Positions 3,984-56,954 of a stretch of 61,469 bases of DNA are shown here, piece by piece. Origin of the DNA: an uncultured delta proteobacterium (lineage in GTDB: Bacteria; Myxococcota_A; Polyangia; Polyangiales; Polyangiaceae); contig CAIVJW010000245.1 of assembly GCA_903906315.1 (NCBI GenBank), positions 1-61,469 of the forward strand, given 5' to 3'. The stretch's first letter is position 1; each line of letters starts with the position of its first letter. The notes beneath the pieces were generated by a model. That model worked only from the letters and a program-made list of their open reading frames with translations. It ran no database searches and was not told where the DNA came from. Position numbers and translations under genes: made by a program.

Positions 3984-4126
3984 CAAGATCGCCAAGATCG
4001 CCAAGGGAAGATTGGGGGGGTGCCGCGAGCCTGCGCGTCCACGCAGGGCGCATCCGACGGCCGGCCTCCGGCCCCGAAGGGCCCAGCTCCTCCGTCTCGC
4101 TTGGCGTCCTTGGCGTCCTTGGCGCC
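3984..4126. repeat. Inverted pair of short tandem 9-mer repeats (ccaagatcg x2.5 at 3984-4006; cttggcgtc x2.5 at 4100-4126) in convergent intergenic region
   Basis: Direct inspection. The two arms are imperfect reverse complements and could pair as a long hairpin. No credible ORF in 3899-4373. Confidence 0.4.
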
Positions 4127-4373
4127 CTGCTCGGTCGATCCAGCCAGGGCGACGCCGCCCGCCGTACAGCAGCTATTCCAAGCTCCCAGCCACGTCCCGC
4201 AGAATGCGGACCCGATCCTCGCCTGATCCGCGAGGCGCGCTTCGGCCGCCCGTCCGCTTCGTCGTCCCCCGGCTCGTGGACGCAGATCACGACGCACTCA
4301 GCGCGAAGGATGACCTTCGCCGATCGAGGTCGTGCTGGTCGTTCCGTTCGCCTTGGACCGTCGAGGACGGCGG

Positions 4374-6068
4374 CTAGCCGCGCATCGCCGCGATCGCGAG
4401 CCCGAGGAGCTTTCCCCACGAGGGCGCGGCCTCGAAGCGCGTGATCCTCGCGCCGACCTCGGCGAGCGTCTTGTGGTCGGCGAACCAGACCGGCGTCGGG
4501 AAGATGCGGAACGGCGCGCGCACGACCGACTTCTGGGGGTGATCGAAGAGCAGCGCGTTGTGCACCACCCCCGTGCCCGATCGGATGTCCTCGGGCGGGT
4601 GGCCGGGGAACGCGCCCCAGGTCGTGTTGACGAGCGCGTAGAGGACGGCCGGCCAGCAGTTCACGCCGATCCCGCCGTAGCGCAGCTCGGCAATCGCGCG
4701 ATCGAAGGCCTCGGCGTGGTCGCGCTCGGTCGCGGGGTGGATGAAGACGCCGCACGAGAGCGTGCCCCAGCAGCGGTCGTTGGCGAACGCGACGGCCTTC
4801 TCGAGGAAGTCGGCCGGCCCGCTCGCGTCGAGCGAGACCTCCGCGATCACGCCGCAGAAGGCCTCGTTCGAGAGCGCGTACTCGCCCTCGGCCGCCGGCA
4901 CGTCGGGCAGCACCGTCCACGGCACGACGCCCTCGGCGTCCGCGCCGACCGCGTCGGCCTTCGGGTAGTGCTCGACGAAGGCGCGCCAGCGGTCCTTCGC
5001 GCCCGGGTAGTAGGCCTTGCGCGGCGGCGTCCGGGCGAGCGCCTCGCGCACCTTCGCCAGGAACGCGCCCTCCTGCGCCCAGCCCTTCGCGGTCACGAGC
5101 ACCTTGGCCGCGTTGCAGTTGAAGCTCGCGTTCTGCGCGACCATGCCCGCGACGTGCCGCGCCTGGAACGCTAGGTCGGCCTCCGACCACGCGCCGGGGA
5201 CGATCAGGATCGGCGTCACGCAGCCGAGCTCCGCGGTGAACGGGCGCGCGTTCAGGCGGTCGCCCGAGGCCTTGCGGCGCGCCTGATCGGCCGGGTCGCG
5301 GCCCCACACGATCGCGTCGTAGGTGCGGTCCGACCCCGTCACGTGCAGCGTGTCGATCTGCGGGTGATCGGCCAGGTGCGCGCCGACCTCGGCGCCGCCG
5401 TACACGACCGCAAGGAAGCCGTCGTCGATGAGCGCCCGGAACGCGCGCTCGAGGCGCGGGCCGACGTGCGCGTTCACCGGGTTCATCTTGAGGACGACGA
5501 CCTCGTCCTCGACGAACAGCTTGTGGATCACGTCCATCGGCGGGATGGACGACACGTTGCCGGCGCCGAGCACCAGCGCGACGCGGCCGCTCTCGCGCTT
5601 GTTCCGGTAGCAGGCGCCCTGCGTCGCCTCGGCGCCGGGCTCGATCCAGACCTCGCCGACGAAGCCCGTGAACAGGGCACGGTCCATCAGGTTCTGCGGG
5701 AAGACGCGCGCGATCTTCTGGCCGTGGCGCGTCTCGATCGAGACGGGCGGCGGGCGACCGTCGTGCTCGAGCGCGTCGATGAGCAGGCGCAGGTTGCGGA
5801 TCGTCGGGTACGGGCCGGCGACCCACTCCTCGCCCTCGAGCGGCTCGCCGCGCGCGATGCCCTTGAGCGCGCAGCCGCCCGCGACCCAATCGTCGGCGAC
5901 CTCGATCACGCCCTCGATGGCGCGGCGGAGGTAGTCGAGCCGCTGCGCAATGCCCACCACGAGCCACGCGTCCTTCTTCGAGGCGACGCGCGCGACGAGC
6001 TCGTCGACGCGGGCTTTCGGGGTCGGAGGGACGGGCGCGGGCGGCTCCTGGAACGCGGGGGACGGCAT
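4374..6068 (-). CDS. Aldehyde dehydrogenase family protein
   Basis: Start MPSPAFQEPP at 6068; upstream in-frame residues are Arg/Pro junk. ALDH-like region GAGNVSSIPPMDVIHKLFVEDEVVVLKMNPVN...ELGCVTPILIV (catalytic Cys region). Confidence 0.8.
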   Translation of the reverse strand: MPSPAFQEPPAPVPPTPKARVDELVARVASKKDAWLVVGIAQRLDYLRRAIEGVIEVADDWVAGGCALKGIARGEPLEGEEWVAGPYPTIRNLRLLIDALEHDGRPPPVSIETRHGQKIARVFPQNLMDRALFTGFVGEVWIEPGAEATQGACYRNKRESGRVALVLGAGNVSSIPPMDVIHKLFVEDEVVVLKMNPVNAHVGPRLERAFRALIDDGFLAVVYGGAEVGAHLADHPQIDTLHVTGSDRTYDAIVWGRDPADQARRKASGDRLNARPFTAELGCVTPILIVPGAWSEADLAFQARHVAGMVAQNASFNCNAAKVLVTAKGWAQEGAFLAKVREALARTPPRKAYYPGAKDRWRAFVEHYPKADAVGADAEGVVPWTVLPDVPAAEGEYALSNEAFCGVIAEVSLDASGPADFLEKAVAFANDRCWGTLSCGVFIHPATERDHAEAFDRAIAELRYGGIGVNCWPAVLYALVNTTWGAFPGHPPEDIRSGTGVVHNALLFDHPQKSVVRAPFRIFPTPVWFADHKTLAEVGARITRFEAAPSWGKLLGLAIAAMRG

Positions 6069-6164
6069 GGCCGCCGAGGGTAGCGCGCGCGGGGCGAACG
6101 GAGAATGGGGCGGACGTCGCCCGGGCTGTCTCGCCGCCCGGCGGGGTGGTAGCGTCGCGGCGCC

Positions 6165-7112
6165 ATGCAAGCGAACACCGCGACGTTCAAGGCGAGCGAC
6201 GGGCAGGACCTCTTCGTCTACGAGTGGCTCCCGGACGCCGCCGTCGCCACGAAGGGCCTCGTCCACGTCGCGCACGGCATGGGCGAGCACGCCGCCCGCT
6301 ACGCGCGCCTCGCCGAGGCGCTCACGGCCGCGGGCTTCGTGGTCTACGCAAACGACCACCGCGGCCACGGCAAGACGGCCGCGAGCGCCCAGGATCTCGG
6401 GTGGTTCGCGCCCACGGACGGCTTCCGCCGCGTGGAGCTCGACCTCGAGGAGCTGGTCAGTGACGAGAAGCGCCGGCACCCCGGACTGCCGGTCTTCCTG
6501 GTCGGCCACAGCATGGGCTCGTACTTGACCCAGCGCTTCCTCATCGAGCGCGGCGAGATCCTCTCGGGCGCGGTCCTGAGCGGCACCGGCGGCAAGCCGA
6601 GCCTGCTGGCGGCGGCCGGCCGCCTCGTCGCGCGCGCCGAGCGCCTGCGCGTCGGCGAGCGCGGCACGTCGAACCTCCTGCGCGACCTCTCGTTCGGCGC
6701 CTTCAACAAGCCATTCGAGCCCGGCCGCACCAGGTTCGACTGGCTGTCTCGCGACCCGGTCGAGGTCGACAAGTACGTGGCCGACCCGCTGTGCGGCTTC
6801 GACAGCACGACCTCGCTCTGGGTCGATCTCCTCGACGGGCTCGCCTTCATCGCCGACCCGGTCAAGCAGGCGCGCATCCCGAAGCACCTGCCGGTCTACG
6901 TCTTCGCCGGCAGCGAGGACCCGGTCGGCGAGAAGACCAAGAGCATCCTGCAGCTCCTCTCCGCCTACGAGCGCGCCGGCCTCACGCACGTGACCCACCG
7001 CTTCTACGACGGCGCGCGCCACGAGACGCTGAACGAGACGAACCGCGACGAGGTGACGCGGGATCTGCTCGCGTGGCTCGAGGCGACGATCGCGGCGAGC
7101 GGGCGCGCCTGA
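6165..7112 (+). CDS. Alpha/beta hydrolase (lysophospholipase/monoacylglycerol lipase-like)
   Basis: HVAHGMGEHAARY...HSMGS (GxSxG nucleophile elbow) with Asp/His downstream; typical lysophospholipase family layout. Confidence 0.85.
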   Translation: MQANTATFKASDGQDLFVYEWLPDAAVATKGLVHVAHGMGEHAARYARLAEALTAAGFVVYANDHRGHGKTAASAQDLGWFAPTDGFRRVELDLEELVSDEKRRHPGLPVFLVGHSMGSYLTQRFLIERGEILSGAVLSGTGGKPSLLAAAGRLVARAERLRVGERGTSNLLRDLSFGAFNKPFEPGRTRFDWLSRDPVEVDKYVADPLCGFDSTTSLWVDLLDGLAFIADPVKQARIPKHLPVYVFAGSEDPVGEKTKSILQLLSAYERAGLTHVTHRFYDGARHETLNETNRDEVTRDLLAWLEATIAASGRA

Positions 7113-48957: not shown

Positions 48958-49992
48958 TCAGCGGTGGGGCAGCGCGCCGTGAAACTGCTTCATTCGCCCG
49001 AGGATCTTCCCGATCGAGAGCGGGAAGGTCATGTGCCCGCCCGGGATCCACTCGATCGGCGGGCGCCCCCACTCCTCCCACTGCTGCTTCACGAGCGGCG
49101 CCGTGATGTAGACGTCGTCGGTCGCCTGCACCCAGAGCTGCCGCTCGGGCGCGAGCTTCGGCTTCATCGTGCCGAGCCCGAGCCGCTGGAACAGCTCCTT
49201 CCTGCGCGCGGCGCCGATGCCGAAGCGCTCGAGGTCCGACTTCATGCGCCACAGGATGGGCGCCTCCTCGACGGCCTCGCCGAGCTTGAGGTGGCCGATG
49301 ATCGGCATGATGTAGTCGGGCGTCGGCTCGACGCAGGCGAGCGCCATGGTGAGCCCGCCGCCGAGGCTGAGCCCGGTCACGCCGATCTCCTCGTAGCCCT
49401 GCGTCTCGCGCAGCCACGCCATCAGGGTCCGCACGTCGATGACCGACTGTCGCACGGCCTCGACCGTGCGCACGAGGTCGGCGCTCCAGAAGAACTCGCC
49501 GTGGAAGAGGGCGCTCTTGGGGTTGCGGCTGCCGTGGAAGGGTAGCTGGATGTGGACGAGATCGACGCCGAGCTCGTCGTAGAGGCGCGGCAGGAGCAGG
49601 GCCTCCTCGACGCGCGGCCCGGGCTCGAGCCAGCCGTGGACGAAGAGCAGCGCGCGCTTGCGCTGACCGCTGCGCGGGTGGATGAAGCGCGCCGTGACGC
49701 GCTGGTTGAGCCAGTACTCGCCGGTGTGGCGCGCGCGGTAGTGCGGGCAGAGCACGACGTGCTGGCTGTGCCAGCGCAAGGTCTCGGTGATGCGCTTGGC
49801 GCCCATCACGAGGCGAGGCCGCCTCCGCACGACGTCGCGCGGCACGACCGGCACGGGGAAGATCACCTCGGGCGGCGCGTCGAGGTACGGGCCGAGGTCG
49901 TCGACGGTGTTCGTCCCGGCGCCGCGCCACCCGTGCAGGAGGTGCGAGCCGAGGCCCACGACGCGATCGACCGCTTCGCCGAAGGAGAGCAT
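48958..49992 (-). CDS. Alpha/beta hydrolase fold protein
   Basis: LFVHGWLEPG...GLSLGG (GxSxG) ...GGHMTF; typical alpha/beta hydrolase. Confidence 0.7.
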   Translation of the reverse strand: MLSFGEAVDRVVGLGSHLLHGWRGAGTNTVDDLGPYLDAPPEVIFPVPVVPRDVVRRRPRLVMGAKRITETLRWHSQHVVLCPHYRARHTGEYWLNQRVTARFIHPRSGQRKRALLFVHGWLEPGPRVEEALLLPRLYDELGVDLVHIQLPFHGSRNPKSALFHGEFFWSADLVRTVEAVRQSVIDVRTLMAWLRETQGYEEIGVTGLSLGGGLTMALACVEPTPDYIMPIIGHLKLGEAVEEAPILWRMKSDLERFGIGAARRKELFQRLGLGTMKPKLAPERQLWVQATDDVYITAPLVKQQWEEWGRPPIEWIPGGHMTFPLSIGKILGRMKQFHGALPHR

Positions 49993-50100
49993 CGGCTCAT
50001 TGGAGACGACCCGGGGGCCGCGGTCGAGGGGGAGGGGCGCGGGGCCGGTCGAGCCGGCCTGCCACCCCGCGTGGAGGCGGCTGCCGACGCCGCGCCGACC

Positions 50101-51120
50101 TCACGGGCTCGATCGAAAGCGCCGCGCGCGCCTCCTCGACGCGAGGACCGCGGCAGCGAGGGCGATCGACGCGATCGCGCCCGGCGACCGCACCGGGGCG
50201 CGGCGCGCGGAGCACTGGACGGCCACGTCGGGCGCCGCGTCGGCCTCGGCGATCGCGTCGGCCTCGGGCCCGGCTTCCGCGGACGACCCGGCGTCGCGGG
50301 CCGCGATCGGCTTCATCGTCGTCGCGGCCTGGCCGCCCGATCCGCCGCCGGCCCCCGCGCCGCCCGCGCCGCCCGCGCCCGCCGCCTCGTGCGCGGCGAT
50401 CTGCTGATCCAGCCAGTCGCGCACGAGGTCGACGCGCGCGACGAGCGATTGCCCCGACGTCACGGCCACGAGCGACCGCGGGATCGGCCCGGGCACGAGC
50501 GAGGGCCCGCCCGAGTCGCCCTCCTGACCCACGCCGGGGAACGTGAGGTAGTCGAAGGGGAAGGCGGCGACCGCCCCGTCCTGCACGGTGAGGGCGTCGC
50601 TCACGAAGAGGTCCTTCATCGACGGGAGGCCGTCGTCGATGCGCCCGACCTGCACGACCTGCGACCCATCGGGGAGCGGGGCGATCGCGATGGACGGGTA
50701 GGCGGCGAGATCGATCGACTCGTCGAGCAGGAGCAGGCCGACGTCGTGGACCTCCGGGGTGAGGTACTCCTGTGCGTGGCCCGCGTAGTCGTACGTCACG
50801 CCCGTCCATGCGTACGCGCCCTGCCCGTCGCCGGCGTAGGGCGCGAACACGCGCCACGAGGCGAAGCCGTCGACGCAGTGGCCCGCGGTGATCACCGCCC
50901 TGCGCGCGACCACCGCGCCCGTGCACATCGCGACGAGCTGCCCCGCCTCGTAGACGTTGACCAGCGCGGCCTCCTCGTACGCGTCCGCGCGCGTCCCGCC
51001 GACGATCGCGTCGGCGCGCGCGCCGATCGCCTCGGGGCCCGGCGCGCCGGCGCCGCACGCGGTGGTCGTCGCGATCGCGATCAGCGCGGCGAGGCGGGTC
51101 GGCAGGAGGTGAGTGGTCAT
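50101..51120 (-). CDS. Trypsin-like (S1 family) serine protease with MYXO-CTERM sorting signal
   Basis: Signal MTTHLLPTRLAALIAIATTTACGAG. IVGG...TAGHC (His), GDSGGP (Ser). C-terminus QCSARRAPVRSPGAIASIALAAAVLASRRRARR (GC-TM-RRR-type). Confidence 0.8.
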   Translation of the reverse strand: MTTHLLPTRLAALIAIATTTACGAGAPGPEAIGARADAIVGGTRADAYEEAALVNVYEAGQLVAMCTGAVVARRAVITAGHCVDGFASWRVFAPYAGDGQGAYAWTGVTYDYAGHAQEYLTPEVHDVGLLLLDESIDLAAYPSIAIAPLPDGSQVVQVGRIDDGLPSMKDLFVSDALTVQDGAVAAFPFDYLTFPGVGQEGDSGGPSLVPGPIPRSLVAVTSGQSLVARVDLVRDWLDQQIAAHEAAGAGGAGGAGAGGGSGGQAATTMKPIAARDAGSSAEAGPEADAIAEADAAPDVAVQCSARRAPVRSPGAIASIALAAAVLASRRRARRFRSSP

Positions 51121-51211
51121 GGCGTCCCGTGCGCGGCGCGGCGGCGCCCGCGCTCTCGGCCCTCTCGGGTGCCCCCGCGCGCGCCCGCATTCACGCGCGC
51201 GGCGCCGCGGA

Positions 51212-51874
51212 TCACTCCGCGATCGCGAACTCGGGGCACACCTCGAAGCCCGCGAGGCAGGGGAAGTCGAGCCCCTGGATGGCCGAAAGGACGCAGCCGG
51301 CGAGCGCCTGCGAGCCGGACTGCACGTCGGTGACGTGTCCCGAGGCGTCGAGCACGATCTTGAAGTCGCCCTGCGTCGTGAGCAGGTCCGAGCAGGCCGC
51401 GACCATGGCGTCGATCATGCGCTGCGCGTCCGAATGCGCCCCGCCCTGCGCGTAGGTGTAGATCGCGGGCGAGGCCGTCTCGACGCAGGCCGCCGCGAGC
51501 GCCGCGGTGGCCGCGTCGCTCTGCGCCTTGGCGGCGGCGGCTCCTGCGGGCGTGTCGCACGGGCGGAGCCCGACCATGCCGGCGTACACGTCGAGCGAGA
51601 ACGACGCGATCGGCGGGGGCTGCTCGGTCACCCCGATCCCCCCCGAGTAGCACGCGGCGCCCGCCGCGACCGCGGCCTGGATCGAGGCCTCGGTCGGCCG
51701 CGGCGGCGGGTCCGGGCACCCGCCCGTCGTGGTCGTGGTGGTGGTCGTCGTGGAGATCGTCGTCGTACCCGTGGTGCTCCTGCCCCCCGGGCGGTCGACC
51801 GCGACGTTGCCCCCGCAGCCGATCGGCGCAGCGGCCATCGCGAACGTGAGCGCGCTGGCCGCGGCCGATCGCAT
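51212..51874 (-). other. Lipoprotein-like module (signal peptide + poly-Thr linker + Cys-containing domain); either nested in-frame gene or fused C-terminal domain of the radical SAM ORF
   Basis: In-frame ATG at 51874 gives MRSAAASALTFAMAAAPIGCGGNVAVDRPGGRSTTGTTTISTTTTTTTTTGGC..., same layout as the lipoprotein at 155..829. Confidence 0.35.
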
Positions 51875-53488
51875 CGGCGCGAACATGCGCGCCGTCGCGG
51901 GCGCGGCGCGCAGGAGCGACGCCTCGATCCGCTCGAGATCGCCCTCGAGCTCCTTCGCGGGTCGCGCGAGCCCGCGCACGAGCGCCTCCGCGTCCGCGAA
52001 GCCGCCGCCGGCCTCGACGAGCGCGAGCGCGCGCCGGTAGCCGTCGACGTAGAGGTGGTTGACGCGCGCGCGCACGCCCTCGAGCCGCGGGCCGACGTCG
52101 CCGCGCAGCCGCTCGGGGTGCAGGCGCCGGGCGAGCGCGAGCGCGAGGTGCGCGTCGTGCGTGCGGTACGCGACGGAGTAGTCCCAGAACGCCTCGGCGC
52201 GCACGCGCGTGAAGACGTCGGCGAGGCGCGTCATGGCCTCGTCGGCGAAGGTGTAGCCGTAGCGAAGCGGGTTGCCGACGACGCGGCCCTCGGCCGTGAG
52301 CCGATCGTGCAGCCGGGTGCCGTGGTAGACCTGCATCTTCGTCGCCTCGAAGACGCCCGCGGGCACACGCTCGAGGAGATCGAGGCCGGCCGCGACGGTG
52401 GCGAGCGTCGACTCCGGGTGCACGATCATCAGGTTCGACACGGTCGTCACCCCGGCGTCGGAGAGCGTCTGCAGGAGCGCGAGCTCACGCGCGCCGGGCG
52501 CGGTGCGGCCGTAGGCGCGGGCCTCGCCCGGGGTCGCGAGCTCGAGGCCGATGAACAGGCGCACGAGGCCGACCTCGGCGAACGCGCGCGCGATCCGGGG
52601 CGTCACGCGGTCGGCGCGCAGCATCGCGCCGATGCCGAGCGCGCCGACGCCCCGCGCCCGCAGGCCCTCGCGCCACGCGGCGAGGTACGCGAGCGCGTCG
52701 TCCTCGCCGTACGGCAGAAGGTGCTCGTCGACGAAGTAGAAATAGCGCGCCCCGCGCGCGTGCCATAGCTCGGCCATCTCGTCGCACACGGCCTCGAGGT
52801 CGCGCCGCCGCACGCCGCCGACGCCGGCGATCGAGAGCGTGCGCGGCGCGTGACCGGCGCGCACGCCCTCGCGGCGCTCCTCGGTCTGCAGCGCGGCCGG
52901 ACCGCAGTACGCGCAGCGGCCGCGGCAGCCGCGCGACGCCGTCATGTGCGCGGCCGGGTGGCCGAGGATCTCGGGCAGCTCGTCACGCGAGGGGCGGAGC
53001 GCGGTCGGCCCGAGGTCGAGCACCGGCGCGGGCGGGCCGTCGCCCTCGCGCGTGGTGACGCCGGGCACGCCGAAGACGGCCTGCCCGCGGCCGACACGCG
53101 CCGCGATCTCGACGATCGGCGCCTCGCCCGCGAAGCGGACCACGCTGTGGAGCCACGGGTGCCGCGCGAGCAACCACTCGCGCGCGAGCGTCGCGAACGG
53201 CCCGCCGCACGTGACGTGCCCGCGAAACCCGGCGCGCGCGAGCGCCTCGCCGAGCGCGAGCGGCAGGACCGCCGATCCGCCGTCCGCGAGCGACAGGCCG
53301 ACCACGCCCGGCCGGGCGGCGAGGATGGCCACGACCGCGCGCGCGAGCTCGACCGCGTCGTTGACGTAGTGGACGGACACCGCGGTCCCGGCCTGCTCCA
53401 GCGCGGCGCGCAGGTACGCGAGCCCGAGGTTCTCGTTGTGCGGGAGACGACGACCGACGAGCGCGACGGCGGCTGCGGGGACGACCAT
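51212..53488 (-). CDS. B12-binding-domain radical SAM protein; ORF continues in frame into a lipoprotein-like C-terminal module
   Basis: N-terminal B12-binding-like region, then SRGCRGRCAYCG (Cx3Cx2C). rSAM similarity ends about residue 535. The same frame, with no stop, continues into MRSAAASALTFAMAAAPIGCGG + poly-Thr linker + Cys-containing domain. Confidence 0.7.
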   Translation of the reverse strand: MVVPAAAVALVGRRLPHNENLGLAYLRAALEQAGTAVSVHYVNDAVELARAVVAILAARPGVVGLSLADGGSAVLPLALGEALARAGFRGHVTCGGPFATLAREWLLARHPWLHSVVRFAGEAPIVEIAARVGRGQAVFGVPGVTTREGDGPPAPVLDLGPTALRPSRDELPEILGHPAAHMTASRGCRGRCAYCGPAALQTEERREGVRAGHAPRTLSIAGVGGVRRRDLEAVCDEMAELWHARGARYFYFVDEHLLPYGEDDALAYLAAWREGLRARGVGALGIGAMLRADRVTPRIARAFAEVGLVRLFIGLELATPGEARAYGRTAPGARELALLQTLSDAGVTTVSNLMIVHPESTLATVAAGLDLLERVPAGVFEATKMQVYHGTRLHDRLTAEGRVVGNPLRYGYTFADEAMTRLADVFTRVRAEAFWDYSVAYRTHDAHLALALARRLHPERLRGDVGPRLEGVRARVNHLYVDGYRRALALVEAGGGFADAEALVRGLARPAKELEGDLERIEASLLRAAPATARMFAPMRSAAASALTFAMAAAPIGCGGNVAVDRPGGRSTTGTTTISTTTTTTTTTGGCPDPPPRPTEASIQAAVAAGAACYSGGIGVTEQPPPIASFSLDVYAGMVGLRPCDTPAGAAAAKAQSDAATAALAAACVETASPAIYTYAQGGAHSDAQRMIDAMVAACSDLLTTQGDFKIVLDASGHVTDVQSGSQALAGCVLSAIQGLDFPCLAGFEVCPEFAIAE

Positions 53489-53685
53489 GGGCGGACCTCC
53501 TCGACGCAGGCTACGCGCATCGCGGCCGCGACGATGCGGCCACCGGCCGGACGGCGACCGGCCCTCGAAGGAGGGCGCTCACGCCGGCGGACACCATCAC
53601 CGGGCGGACCGGGGGCGCTCCGCCCGGCGCGGCGTTTCACGCCAGCCTTCCGCCCGCGGGCCGCTCGCGCTAAGTGCGCCCAACC

Positions 53686-55113
<1,428 letters not shown>

Positions 55114-55365
55114 GCGACCCCGCCGCGCGCTCGGCCCCTCGCCACCGCAAGCGCGCGCGAGCGGTCGGGCCGCGGCGCGCGCCCCGGTGGGCCCTCGCCG
55201 GTCCTTGCTCGCCACCTCGATCCCGCCGCCAGGCTCCCTCCGCGGAGCCCCGCCTCCGTCGTGCGCGCCGCCAGGTCGAGGCGCAACCCCCGCGGGCGGC
55301 CGTCGTCGCGTCGCCCCACCGGGGCGTTGCTCTGGCCGCCGTGCGTCGTGCTACCGTCCGCGACC

Positions 55366-56298
55366 ATGCTCGGCCGGGTGATCGTGATCGCGCTCAACAC
55401 CTACCGGGAGTCGGTGCGCGCGCGCATCCTCCTCGGGCTCGCAGGCGTCGCCTTCGCCGTCGCGTTCTACTCGATCGTCGTCGGCGCCTTCACGCTCCAC
55501 AACGGCGCGCGGGTGGTGAGCGACCTCGGCGCCGCGACGATCTCGGTCTTCAGCGTCGCCGTCGCCGTCGTGATCGGCGCGACGTCGCTCTACCGGGAGC
55601 TCGAGCAGAAGACGATCTTCCCCATCCTCGCGCGCCCGATCCGGCGCGGCGAGTACCTCGTCGGCAAGTACCTCGGCACGCTGCTGACGCTGGCCGTGTT
55701 CATCATGGCCGACGCCGCGCTCGTGCTGATCATCCTCGCAACGATGGCGGGCGCGTCGCTCGCGGTGGTCACGACGGTCGCCGTCGTCGCGGTCGCAGGC
55801 CTCGTGCTGCCCGGGCTGAAGTGGCCCTCGGCCTTCACGTTCGGCCCGATCCCGTGGGCGTTCGCGCTGCTCGCCGTCGCGACCGTCCTCGCCGGCAACG
55901 CGCCGGAGGAGCGCCGGGTCGTGCTCGCGTCGGGCGTGCTGACGCTGCTCGAGGTCGGCATCATCGCCGCCATCGCGACCCTGTTTTCGGCGTTTTCGAC
56001 GCCGTTCCTGTCGGCGCTGCTGACGATCTGGGTCTTCCTCATCGGCCGCTCGGCCGACTCGCTCGCCCGCCTGCCGGTCAAGACGTTCGGCCCGCTCCTG
56101 CACAACCTCGGGGTCCTGCTGTCAAAGGTGTTCCCCAACCTGCAGATCTACGTGCCGCCGCGGCCGCTCCTCACCGGCGAGGCGATGAACGGCACGCTCT
56201 CGTCGCACGTCGCCCTCGCGCTCGGCATGACCGTCGCGTGGGCGGTCGGTCTCCTCGCCACCGCGAGCTTCATCTTCAAGAAGCGCGACTTCCTGTGA
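55366..56298 (+). CDS. ABC-2 family transporter permease
   Basis: Six TM helices. MLGRVIVIALNTYRESVRARILLGL... typical ABC-2 (gliding-motility/lantibiotic-type) permease N-terminus. No ATPase gene adjacent. Confidence 0.7.
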   Translation: MLGRVIVIALNTYRESVRARILLGLAGVAFAVAFYSIVVGAFTLHNGARVVSDLGAATISVFSVAVAVVIGATSLYRELEQKTIFPILARPIRRGEYLVGKYLGTLLTLAVFIMADAALVLIILATMAGASLAVVTTVAVVAVAGLVLPGLKWPSAFTFGPIPWAFALLAVATVLAGNAPEERRVVLASGVLTLLEVGIIAAIATLFSAFSTPFLSALLTIWVFLIGRSADSLARLPVKTFGPLLHNLGVLLSKVFPNLQIYVPPRPLLTGEAMNGTLSSHVALALGMTVAWAVGLLATASFIFKKRDFL

Positions 56299-56954
56299 CG
56301 CGACGCGCCCTCGCGGTCCGCGCGCTGGGTGCGGCGGCCGTGCTGGGGCTGGCCATCGGCGCCGTCTCGCTGCGCGTGGTGGCCGCCGGCGAGGCCGAGA
56401 TCGCGTCCTCCACGGCCGCGCTCCGATCCGGCGACGCGCGCGAAGCCGTGGTCCACGCCCGCCGCGCCGCGGGGTGGTACGCGCCCGCCGCGCCGCACGT
56501 CCGGGTCGCGTACGGGCGCCTCGTCGCGCTCGCCTCGGCCGCGGAAGGGCTCGGCGACCGCGATCTCGCGCTCTTCGCCTGGCGCGCCGTGCGCACCGCC
56601 TCGCTCGAGACACGCTGGCTCTTCGGGGCCCCGCACGCCGACGACCGCGCCCGCGCCGACAGGGCCATCGCCCACCTCGAGGCCGCGTCGCCCCGCCCCC
56701 CCGGCAGCCGTGGGGACCCGGAGGCCGTCGTCCTGCGCAAGGCCCTCGAGGCCCTCGCCCGCGACGAGGCGCCGCGCACGGGCTGGGTCGCCGCGCTCGT
56801 GGCCGCGTTCGCGGCGTGGACGATCGGCGCGGGCGCGTTCGTCGCCCTCGGCGTCGACGCCTCGGGCCGCGTCGTCTCGCGCCGCGGCTGGCCCGCGGCC
56901 GGCGTCGCGGCCGCAGGCGTCGGGCTGTGGCTCGTGGCAATCTGGAGAGCCTGA
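56295..56954 (+). CDS. Hypothetical membrane protein translationally coupled to the ABC-2 permease
   Basis: GTG start overlapping the permease stop (GTGA). N-terminal TM, Ala/Arg-rich helical region, C-terminal TM helices. Composition is borderline against GC-driven junk. Confidence 0.45.
   Translation: MTRRALAVRALGAAAVLGLAIGAVSLRVVAAGEAEIASSTAALRSGDAREAVVHARRAAGWYAPAAPHVRVAYGRLVALASAAEGLGDRDLALFAWRAVRTASLETRWLFGAPHADDRARADRAIAHLEAASPRPPGSRGDPEAVVLRKALEALARDEAPRTGWVAALVAAFAAWTIGAGAFVALGVDASGRVVSRRGWPAAGVAAAGVGLWLVAIWRA

Follow-up and report, generated by a model that had tools for sequence, protein, structure and literature searches.

A cobalamin-binding radical SAM protein with an internal lipoprotein-type signal and a TonB-like tail domain in uncultured Polyangia

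Class B radical S-adenosylmethionine (SAM) enzymes, such as OxsB, TsrM, CysS, TokK and MgmA and, by hidden Markov model (HMM), HpnR, TIGR04072, ApyD and BchE, combine a cobalamin (B12)-binding Rossmann domain with a radical SAM barrel bearing a CX3CX2C motif. To our knowledge, no class B enzyme of these families has a membrane segment, a lipobox or a periplasmic domain. Here, we analysed a gene at positions 51212..53488 (minus strand) of a 61,469-nucleotide stretch of DNA, referred to as the window, from an uncultured delta proteobacterium assigned to the Polyangiaceae (GenBank assembly GCA_903906315.1, contig CAIVJW010000245.1). Its product shares both enzyme parts with the proteins above and continues, in the same frame, into an internal lipoprotein-type signal, a linker and a domain predicted to be exported.

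The predicted N-in/C-out plan of this fusion protein is, overall, that of TonB and TolA, and it is also found in GltG and GltJ (PglI and AgmX) of the Agl-Glt gliding machinery of Myxococcus xanthus, which consist of a cytoplasmic N-terminal domain, one membrane segment, a linker and a periplasmic TonB-like domain (PMC11761067). The C-terminal subdomain of the fusion protein appears homologous to that of GltG and GltJ, including its two Cys. In the place where GltG and GltJ have cytoplasmic FHA, ZnR or GYF modules, however, the fusion protein has an enzyme; its membrane segment, unlike theirs, ends in a conserved lipobox Cys, and it has an extra 4-Cys N-terminal subdomain and two more Cys in the exported part. 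The His of the 'SHLS' motif of TonB and TolA has no counterpart, the membrane segment of the fusion protein being free of His.

Lipoprotein precursors handled by Lgt, LspA and Lnt share with the fusion protein a basic n-region, an uncharged h-region, an A/G/S-Cys pair, a disordered tether and a folded domain. Their signal is N-terminal, with the Cys within about the first 35 residues, whereas that of the fusion protein lies about 535 residues inside the chain, behind a folded cytoplasmic enzyme, has its Cys at residue 558 of 758 and is strongly conserved in its first half. In the ABC importers OpuA and GlnPQ of Lactococcus, the substrate-binding (lipo)protein is fused to the C terminus of the permease. 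As there, a once-separate exported (lipo)protein would have been joined behind another protein, its signal being reused as a membrane-crossing segment; in OpuA and GlnPQ, however, the upstream partner is an integral membrane protein, an obvious pairing, whereas here it is a soluble-type Fe-S/B12 enzyme and the lipobox has been retained. We found no description in the literature of a radical SAM enzyme with this architecture or of an internal lipobox. Each part is of a known kind, and the combination is new. A first-pass annotation of the window had seen little sense in a signal peptide lying inside a cytoplasmic Fe-S enzyme; this is wrong, as the N-in/C-out plan is known from GltG, GltJ, TonB and TolA. 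The unusual features of the protein are that its cytoplasmic part is an enzyme and that the lipobox is conserved.

The fusion gene and its enzyme half

The open reading frame (ORF) encodes 758 aa without a stop between its parts, and its order of B12-binding radical SAM part, lipoprotein-type signal, poly-Thr linker and Cys-containing domain is as the first-pass annotation had given it; Pfam identifies the B12-binding and Radical_SAM domains (Table 1). A search of 5.8 billion proteins returned 190 relatives. Among the 120 listed, identity was 41-72%, nearly all had 99-100% query coverage, and lengths were 745-845 aa; they came from metagenomes or metagenome-assembled genomes (MAGs) labelled Polyangiaceae, Byssovorax, Sandaracinaceae, Myxococcales or 'Deltaproteobacteria'. 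When one genome per species was scanned, the fusion gene was present in about 40 Polyangia/Myxococcota MAGs, and most of these roughly 40 loci, read from the DNA, had an unbroken ORF with nine Cys after residue 540. The exceptions were one frameshifted locus (L019) and two truncated ones (L050 and L054). None of the homologous loci examined carried the radical SAM enzyme and the lipoprotein as adjacent separate genes. In the window itself, the GC content at third codon positions (GC3) of the ORF frame was 0.93-1.00 across the junction and the tail, in local DNA of 75% GC, indicating that one frame is coding continuously; a frame change at the junction was thereby ruled out.

L019 (CAVQUB010000020.1, match 4001-6284) is the closest species-level homologue, with 70% identity. 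Its frame is broken inside the tail, giving an ORF of 743 aa against 761 matched and four tail Cys, which probably stems from an assembly indel rather than from a true split of the gene. Several genomes in the one-genome-per-species scan contained three to six copies of the fusion, namely JACRCX01 (L020, L029, L030, L046, L050 and L053), CBDCTZ01 (L011, L013 and L049) and JBNLED01 (L033, L034, L043 and L048). Each paralogue in these multi-copy MAGs has its own diverged tail, suggesting several parallel enzyme/tail pairs per cell.

From its domain content, the N-terminal part of about 530 residues is identified as a radical SAM enzyme of class B (cobalamin-dependent), its cluster motif being intact. 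The annotation's view that some 535 residues is a normal length for such an enzyme is fair, since tail-less relatives have 540-590 aa. A full-length AlphaFold2 (AF2) model built from the family alignment had a pLDDT (predicted local distance difference test) score of 89 and a predicted template modelling (pTM) score of 0.80, with low confidence only at residues 547-588, the end of the membrane segment and the linker. Foldseek matched the full model to OxsB (E 1e-19), TsrM (5e-16), CysS (8e-16), MgmA (1e-15) and TokK (6e-14). None of the curated NCBIfam families was reached, the best being TIGR04072 'rSAM_ladder_B12' with 41.7 bits against a cut-off of 360, followed by HpnR (35.4 against 650) and ApyD (34.5 against 750). 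The named B12-dependent families HpnR, TIGR04072, ApyD, BchE and BzaD were therefore rejected, as whole-protein scores were far under their cut-offs. Phmmer gave no match among PDB sequences, and a profile search gave OxsB, AprD4 and MgmA, all weakly. The enzyme represents an uncharacterised clade of class B radical SAM enzymes, and its chemistry is probably methyl transfer to an unactivated carbon.

The junction segment and the tail domain

The junction reads RMFAPMRSAAASALTFAMAAAPIGC(558)GGNVAVDRPGGRSTTGTTTISTTTTTTTTTGG and stands downstream of a helical extension of the enzyme that ends at about residue 527. All junction and Cys counts given here out of 110 refer to an alignment of 110 full-length family members. 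In this alignment, P538, A542, A543 and F549 are near-invariant, and position 540, just before the hydrophobic stretch, is R or K in 98 members; in the window protein, R540 is followed by 17 uncharged residues, the uncharged run of the family being mostly 13-18 residues long. Position 558 is Cys in 109 of the 110, and the preceding residue is A, G or S in 106 of these 109. The net charge is +2.3 over the 15 residues before the segment and -3.2 over the 30 residues after it, predicting an N-in/C-out topology by the positive-inside rule. Tat export was discarded, as the n-region is without a twin-arginine.

Lipobox patterns were concentrated at this one site. The PROSITE and G+LPP patterns, of the general form [LVI][ASTVI][GAS]-C, matched the junction in 74/110 and 70/110 members, respectively, whereas all other residues of these proteins, 80,838 in number, gave only 27 and 9 matches. 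The segment also resembles the genuine N-terminal lipoprotein signals of other genes in the window, such as MTTHLLPTRLAALIAIATTTAC of the next downstream gene. Moreover, the plan of basic residues, hydrophobic stretch, A/G/S-Cys, linker and variable tail recurs in tailed B12-binding radical SAM relatives with 27-40% identity, the MAG labels of which include Phycisphaerae/Planctomycetota, Verrucomicrobia, Victivallales and Armatimonadia, and the tail-less relatives are without a lipobox segment. The conservation of the Cys, of the small residue before it and of the pattern, the likeness to real signals and the recurrence in tailed relatives together suggest that it is the lipobox, and not merely a hydrophobic helix, that has been kept by selection.

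Beyond Cys558, the chain continues with GGNVAVDRPGGRS and a poly-Thr/Gly linker, which differs in length and composition between homologues, before a 170-residue region with eight Cys. Modelled alone, this region gave an alpha/beta domain with a pLDDT of 95.3. All nine Cys, that of the lipobox and the eight of the domain, are present in 103/110 members. C644 and C751 are missing jointly in 6/6 sequences that lack either of them, a signature of a disulfide that leaves the domain with an even set of Cys and Cys558 unpaired. An auxiliary-cluster domain of the SPASM or twitch type was considered for the eight Cys and rejected, since these are widely spaced, the fold is alpha/beta and TonB-like, and a signal and a linker come before the domain.

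No Pfam or NCBIfam entry matched the tail directly at E values up to 1-10, and the same was true of 40 tail homologues; the tails of distant relatives gave only a sub-threshold TonB_C match (E 0.16) in these databases. When a profile of the domain was searched against 1.84 billion cluster representatives, 314 matches were obtained. One of these, P0240, was matched in five stretches at E 2e-12 and is itself recognised by NF033768 (141 bits) and PF03544 (60.5 bits). This 509-aa secreted protein consists of an AgmX/PglI / TonB_C unit repeated five times in tandem, with two Cys in every repeat, and provides the bridge from the tail to the TonB_C superfamily. With hhalign, residues 692-744 aligned to a P0240 repeat with a probability of 94.5% (E 8e-8), C699 and C732 falling on the two Cys of the repeat. 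The best fold matches of the tail were TolA-III and the C-terminal domains of TonB, although this fold evidence is weaker than that from sequence. By these profile comparisons, the last subdomain of the tail is assigned to the TonB_C / AgmX-PglI superfamily.

The domain also occurs by itself. At least 15 cluster representatives of 206-378 aa are stand-alone forms with N-terminal signal peptidase II signals, for example MTLNRRRTLALLLAVAGC and ...TLLAAALLAGC, indicating that the tail is a true lipoprotein module of the periplasm. At the loci of these stand-alone lipoproteins that were examined, no related radical SAM gene lay beside them; one (L088) had an unrelated 454-aa B12-binding radical SAM protein on the other strand.

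Table 1. Features of the fusion gene, with positions in the window and residue numbers of the encoded protein
Feature	Position	Strand	Basis
Whole ORF: B12-binding radical SAM enzyme, internal lipoprotein-type signal, linker and predicted exported domain	51212..53488	-	758 aa + stop; homologues cover 99-100%
Cobalamin (B12)-binding domain, residues 19-128	53105..53434	-	Pfam PF02310, 42.1 bits vs cut-off 32.1
Radical SAM core, residues 184-365	52394..52939	-	Pfam PF04055, 41.8 bits vs cut-off 29.5
CX3CX2C [4Fe-4S] cluster motif, C188/C192/C195	52904..52927	-	Sequence reading; Cys invariant in 110 homologues
Helical C-terminal extension of the enzyme, residues 417-527, four long helices, leading to the membrane segment	51908..52240	-	AF2 pLDDT >90; conserved in the family
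Internal lipoprotein-type signal peptide / membrane segment, residues 535-558 (MFAPMRSAAASALTFAMAAAPIGC)	51815..51886	-	Family alignment, lipobox patterns
Codon of Cys558, lipobox Cys; proposed site of diacylglycerol attachment and LspA cleavage	51815..51817	-	Cys in 109/110 homologues
Low-complexity poly-Thr/Gly linker, residues 559-588	51725..51814	-	Sequence reading; pLDDT <50
Predicted exported 8-Cys alpha/beta domain, residues 589-758 (C591, C613, C644, C668, C699, C732, C744, C751)	51215..51724	-	AF2 pLDDT 95.3
Putative TonB_C-superfamily subdomain (AgmX/PglI = GltJ/GltG type), residues 692-744	51257..51415	-	Profile match to P0240; hhalign

Proposed processing and competing explanations

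Taken jointly, that the fusion is real and that its tail is exported can be held with high confidence. As to what becomes of the chain, we lean towards a processed bipartite precursor, made up of a cytoplasmic B12-dependent radical SAM enzyme and an exported, lipidated TonB-like module released by LspA. The hydrophobic segment would insert N-in/C-out via Sec, so that the enzyme would stay at the cytoplasmic face and the C-terminal domain would be translocated and form four disulfides, C644-C751 and C699-C732 being predicted pairs. Lgt would then add diacylglycerol to Cys558, and signal peptidase II would cut the chain before this residue. One translation product would in this way yield a tail-anchored enzyme and a lipoprotein, 1:1 and at one membrane site, with the buried signal peptide staying behind as the C-terminal membrane anchor of the enzyme. 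In the manner of TonB, TolA and GltG/GltJ, the TonB-like domain of the lipoprotein may bind to a beta-strand 'box' in an envelope partner, and the enzyme would most likely methylate, or otherwise radically modify, a membrane-proximal substrate. A wider proposition is put forward more tentatively: that the protein is a natural 'polyprotein', cut at an internal site by the lipoprotein signal peptidase, which is conserved in Myxococcota and has possibly been put to use again, with tails of other kinds, in MAGs carrying the labels Planctomycetota, Verrucomicrobiota and Armatimonadota.

Two explanations other than a genuine fusion had been raised in the first-pass annotation. In one, a sequencing or assembly error or a recent mutation deleted the stop between a radical SAM gene and a downstream lipoprotein gene. 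This we practically dismiss: all that speaks for it is the odd architecture and the fact that frameshifts do occur in some MAG assemblies (as in L019), whereas more than 110 independent sequences, which stem from many samples and many assemblers and are as little as 41% identical, show the same continuous ORF, as do the roughly 40 species-level loci, with the junction conserved; no homologous locus has the two parts as neighbouring separate genes, and a contaminant shared between assemblies is excluded by the divergence of the homologues. In the other, a nested lipoprotein gene would be translated separately from Met535 or Met539, besides or in place of the full-length product. The window does have ATG codons at 51886 and 51874, position 539 is taken by M, L, V or I in 99/110 members, and a few database entries begin at exactly Met539 (e.g. 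P0177), though these may be truncated gene calls. Met itself, however, occupies position 539 in only 66/110 proteins, and of 36 genome loci, 19 have ATG at this codon, 3 have GTG (together only 22/36) and 14 have a non-start codon (CTC, CTG, CTT, ATT, GTA, ACC or ACT); motifs resembling a Shine-Dalgarno sequence precede it in 5/36 loci, no enrichment over the 17% at control positions. As the start Met is not conserved and such motifs are not enriched, a nested gene is unlikely. Besides, the residues just before Met539 (F-[A/S]-P) are conserved as protein, and no stop separates the two parts in the family, save at the frameshifted and truncated loci named above. Internal initiation is thus very improbable, and the third option that the annotation had named, a genuine fusion, is borne out by the comparison of orthologous loci for a stop codon that it had called for: there is one frame with a conserved junction.

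Among explanations that accept the fusion, the protein could be an uncleaved bitopic inner-membrane protein with a permanent signal-anchor, as in TonB, TolA, GltG and GltJ, which ties the enzyme to the periplasmic domain. The TonB-like domain would then localise or regulate the enzyme via an envelope partner, and the boundary Cys would have another role or be lipidated without cleavage. Several observations weigh on this side and against processing by LspA. GltG and GltJ have the same architecture of cytoplasmic domain, transmembrane helix, disordered linker and domain resembling the TonB C-terminal domain (PMC11761067). From the alignment, the n-region and the hydrophobic segment in its first half (PMRAAAA..F, with the near-invariant P538, A542, A543 and F549) appear far more conserved than a disposable signal peptide requires; this suggests a lasting structural role as a membrane anchor, and an uncleaved protein would account for it just as well. 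In one member (P0120, locus L057), the Cys has been lost and the fusion kept. The signal of the window had been called textbook, and the family consensus does match a lipobox, but with its Pro at -3, the A-P-I-G-C of the window does not match the strict PROSITE and G+LPP cores, and about one third of the members do not match them either. On the other side, the segment ends outwardly in an A/G/S-Cys in 106-109 of the 110 members and in relatives from other phyla, for which no reason is known but recognition by Lgt and LspA, Cys558 is left unpaired by the even eight-Cys set with its co-varying pair, the stand-alone version of the domain is predicted to be a lipid-anchored lipoprotein, and an uncharged run of 13-18 residues is short for a stable transmembrane helix. 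On balance, we consider an uncleaved anchor less likely than processing, of which it is the main rival. A further alternative is that the tail, with its conserved C-terminal FPCLAxFEVCPEYxIAE, is the enzyme's own substrate and would undergo modification in the cytoplasm, either ahead of export or in its place. Borosin precursors, which methylate themselves, are a model for such an enzyme-substrate fusion. The gene stands alone with no conserved partner, several genomes have paralogues each with its own tail, the extreme C terminus is highly conserved and contains Cys, and peptide-modifying B12-dependent radical SAM enzymes exist, ApyD and C-methyltransferases of ribosomally synthesised and post-translationally modified peptides being among the weak NCBIfam matches. 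Yet a signal emerging ahead of the tail would normally route the tail through Sec and away from the cytoplasmic active site, the tail would be a folded TonB_C-like domain with disulfide-type Cys and not a short core peptide, and the same domain stands alone without a related radical SAM gene adjoining, which makes this explanation improbable.

Relatives, genomic surroundings and significance

Tails of other kinds were seen in more distant relatives. In eight of them from Planctomycetota, Verrucomicrobia and Myxococcota MAGs (L059, L060, L061, L063, L064, L068, L075 and L082), the part after about residue 530 has a motif H-x-C-E-M-A-P, also in the forms TEMAP and HMCEL. It occurs just past the lipobox Cys in a Pro-rich linker and at the extreme C terminus, flanking a TonB_C-like unit, and its content of His, Met and Cys suggests metal binding or a recognition tag. 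Second-tier paralogues of about 680-710 aa with 33-41% identity (L044-L047, L051, L052, L055 and L062) have the same internal lipobox and a shorter tail with the TonB_C-like unit only, ending in W-Q-E-C-[VL]-[VI]-C-[MLI]-[WF] or similar hydrophobic Cys-rich C termini.

Tail-less relatives of about 580 aa from Syntrophorhabdales, Syntrophobacterales and Ca. Brocadia (L058, L065, L072, L073, L076 and L080) are directly followed by a conserved gene for 240-277 aa. Its product (e.g. L065:5828-6640) begins ..IKNRDWVEPAHPV(I/L)VE.. and is without a signal peptide. It was considered as a detached tail and rejected, being unrelated to the tail and not a lipoprotein; it may be a partner or substrate of the enzymes of this tail-less sister clade.

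Around the fusion gene, no flanking ORF family was common to more than 5/43 loci, and those five are close relatives in synteny. The neighbours in the window encode a trypsin-like lipoprotein, an alpha/beta hydrolase, an M20 peptidase and an ABC-2 permease, none of which recurs at the other loci, and no motor genes of the ExbBD, TolQR or AglRQS type were conserved beside the fusion gene in the 43 loci. Three separate neighbourhood look-ups likewise gave no conserved neighbour. The fusion gene thus looks like a self-contained unit. The next gene downstream (50101-51120, minus strand) encodes a serine protease resembling trypsin (Pfam Trypsin), which bears an N-terminal lipoprotein signal of its own (..LAALIAIATTTAC); the C terminus of this protease is Gly/Ala-rich and then has a hydrophobic stretch and RRRARRFRSSP, which looks like a sorting or anchor tag, and in other genomes the protease gene is not conserved beside the fusion. 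Owing to the GC content of 75%, the region 48019-56954 has, on both strands, very long shadow ORFs that overlie the real genes, such as 52942-55215 (minus strand, 757 aa) and 53436-56954 (plus strand, 1172 aa). They are rich in Arg, Ala and Pro, have no homologues of their own outside the overlap and should not be taken for genes.

Radical SAM enzymes are usually regarded as soluble cytoplasmic proteins, and lipoprotein signals as strictly N-terminal; both views are bent in this family, which numbers several hundred proteins. Processing at the internal lipobox, if it takes place, would be, as far as could be found, a new route to a lipoprotein and would tail-anchor an enzyme in a new way, and annotation and lipoprotein predictors that consider the N terminus only would miss a class of lipoproteins. 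Should the polyprotein reading be true, an unrecognised envelope-spanning process would couple cytoplasmic radical chemistry to a periplasmic binding module. If the segment is not processed, the protein would still be the first B12-dependent radical SAM enzyme known to us that is built like TonB or GltG, which would suggest that, in uncultured Polyangia, radical (methyl-transfer) chemistry in the cytoplasm is linked to a partner in the outer envelope. In both cases, the fusion offers a direct experimental handle on an uncharacterised clade of B12-dependent radical SAM enzymes.

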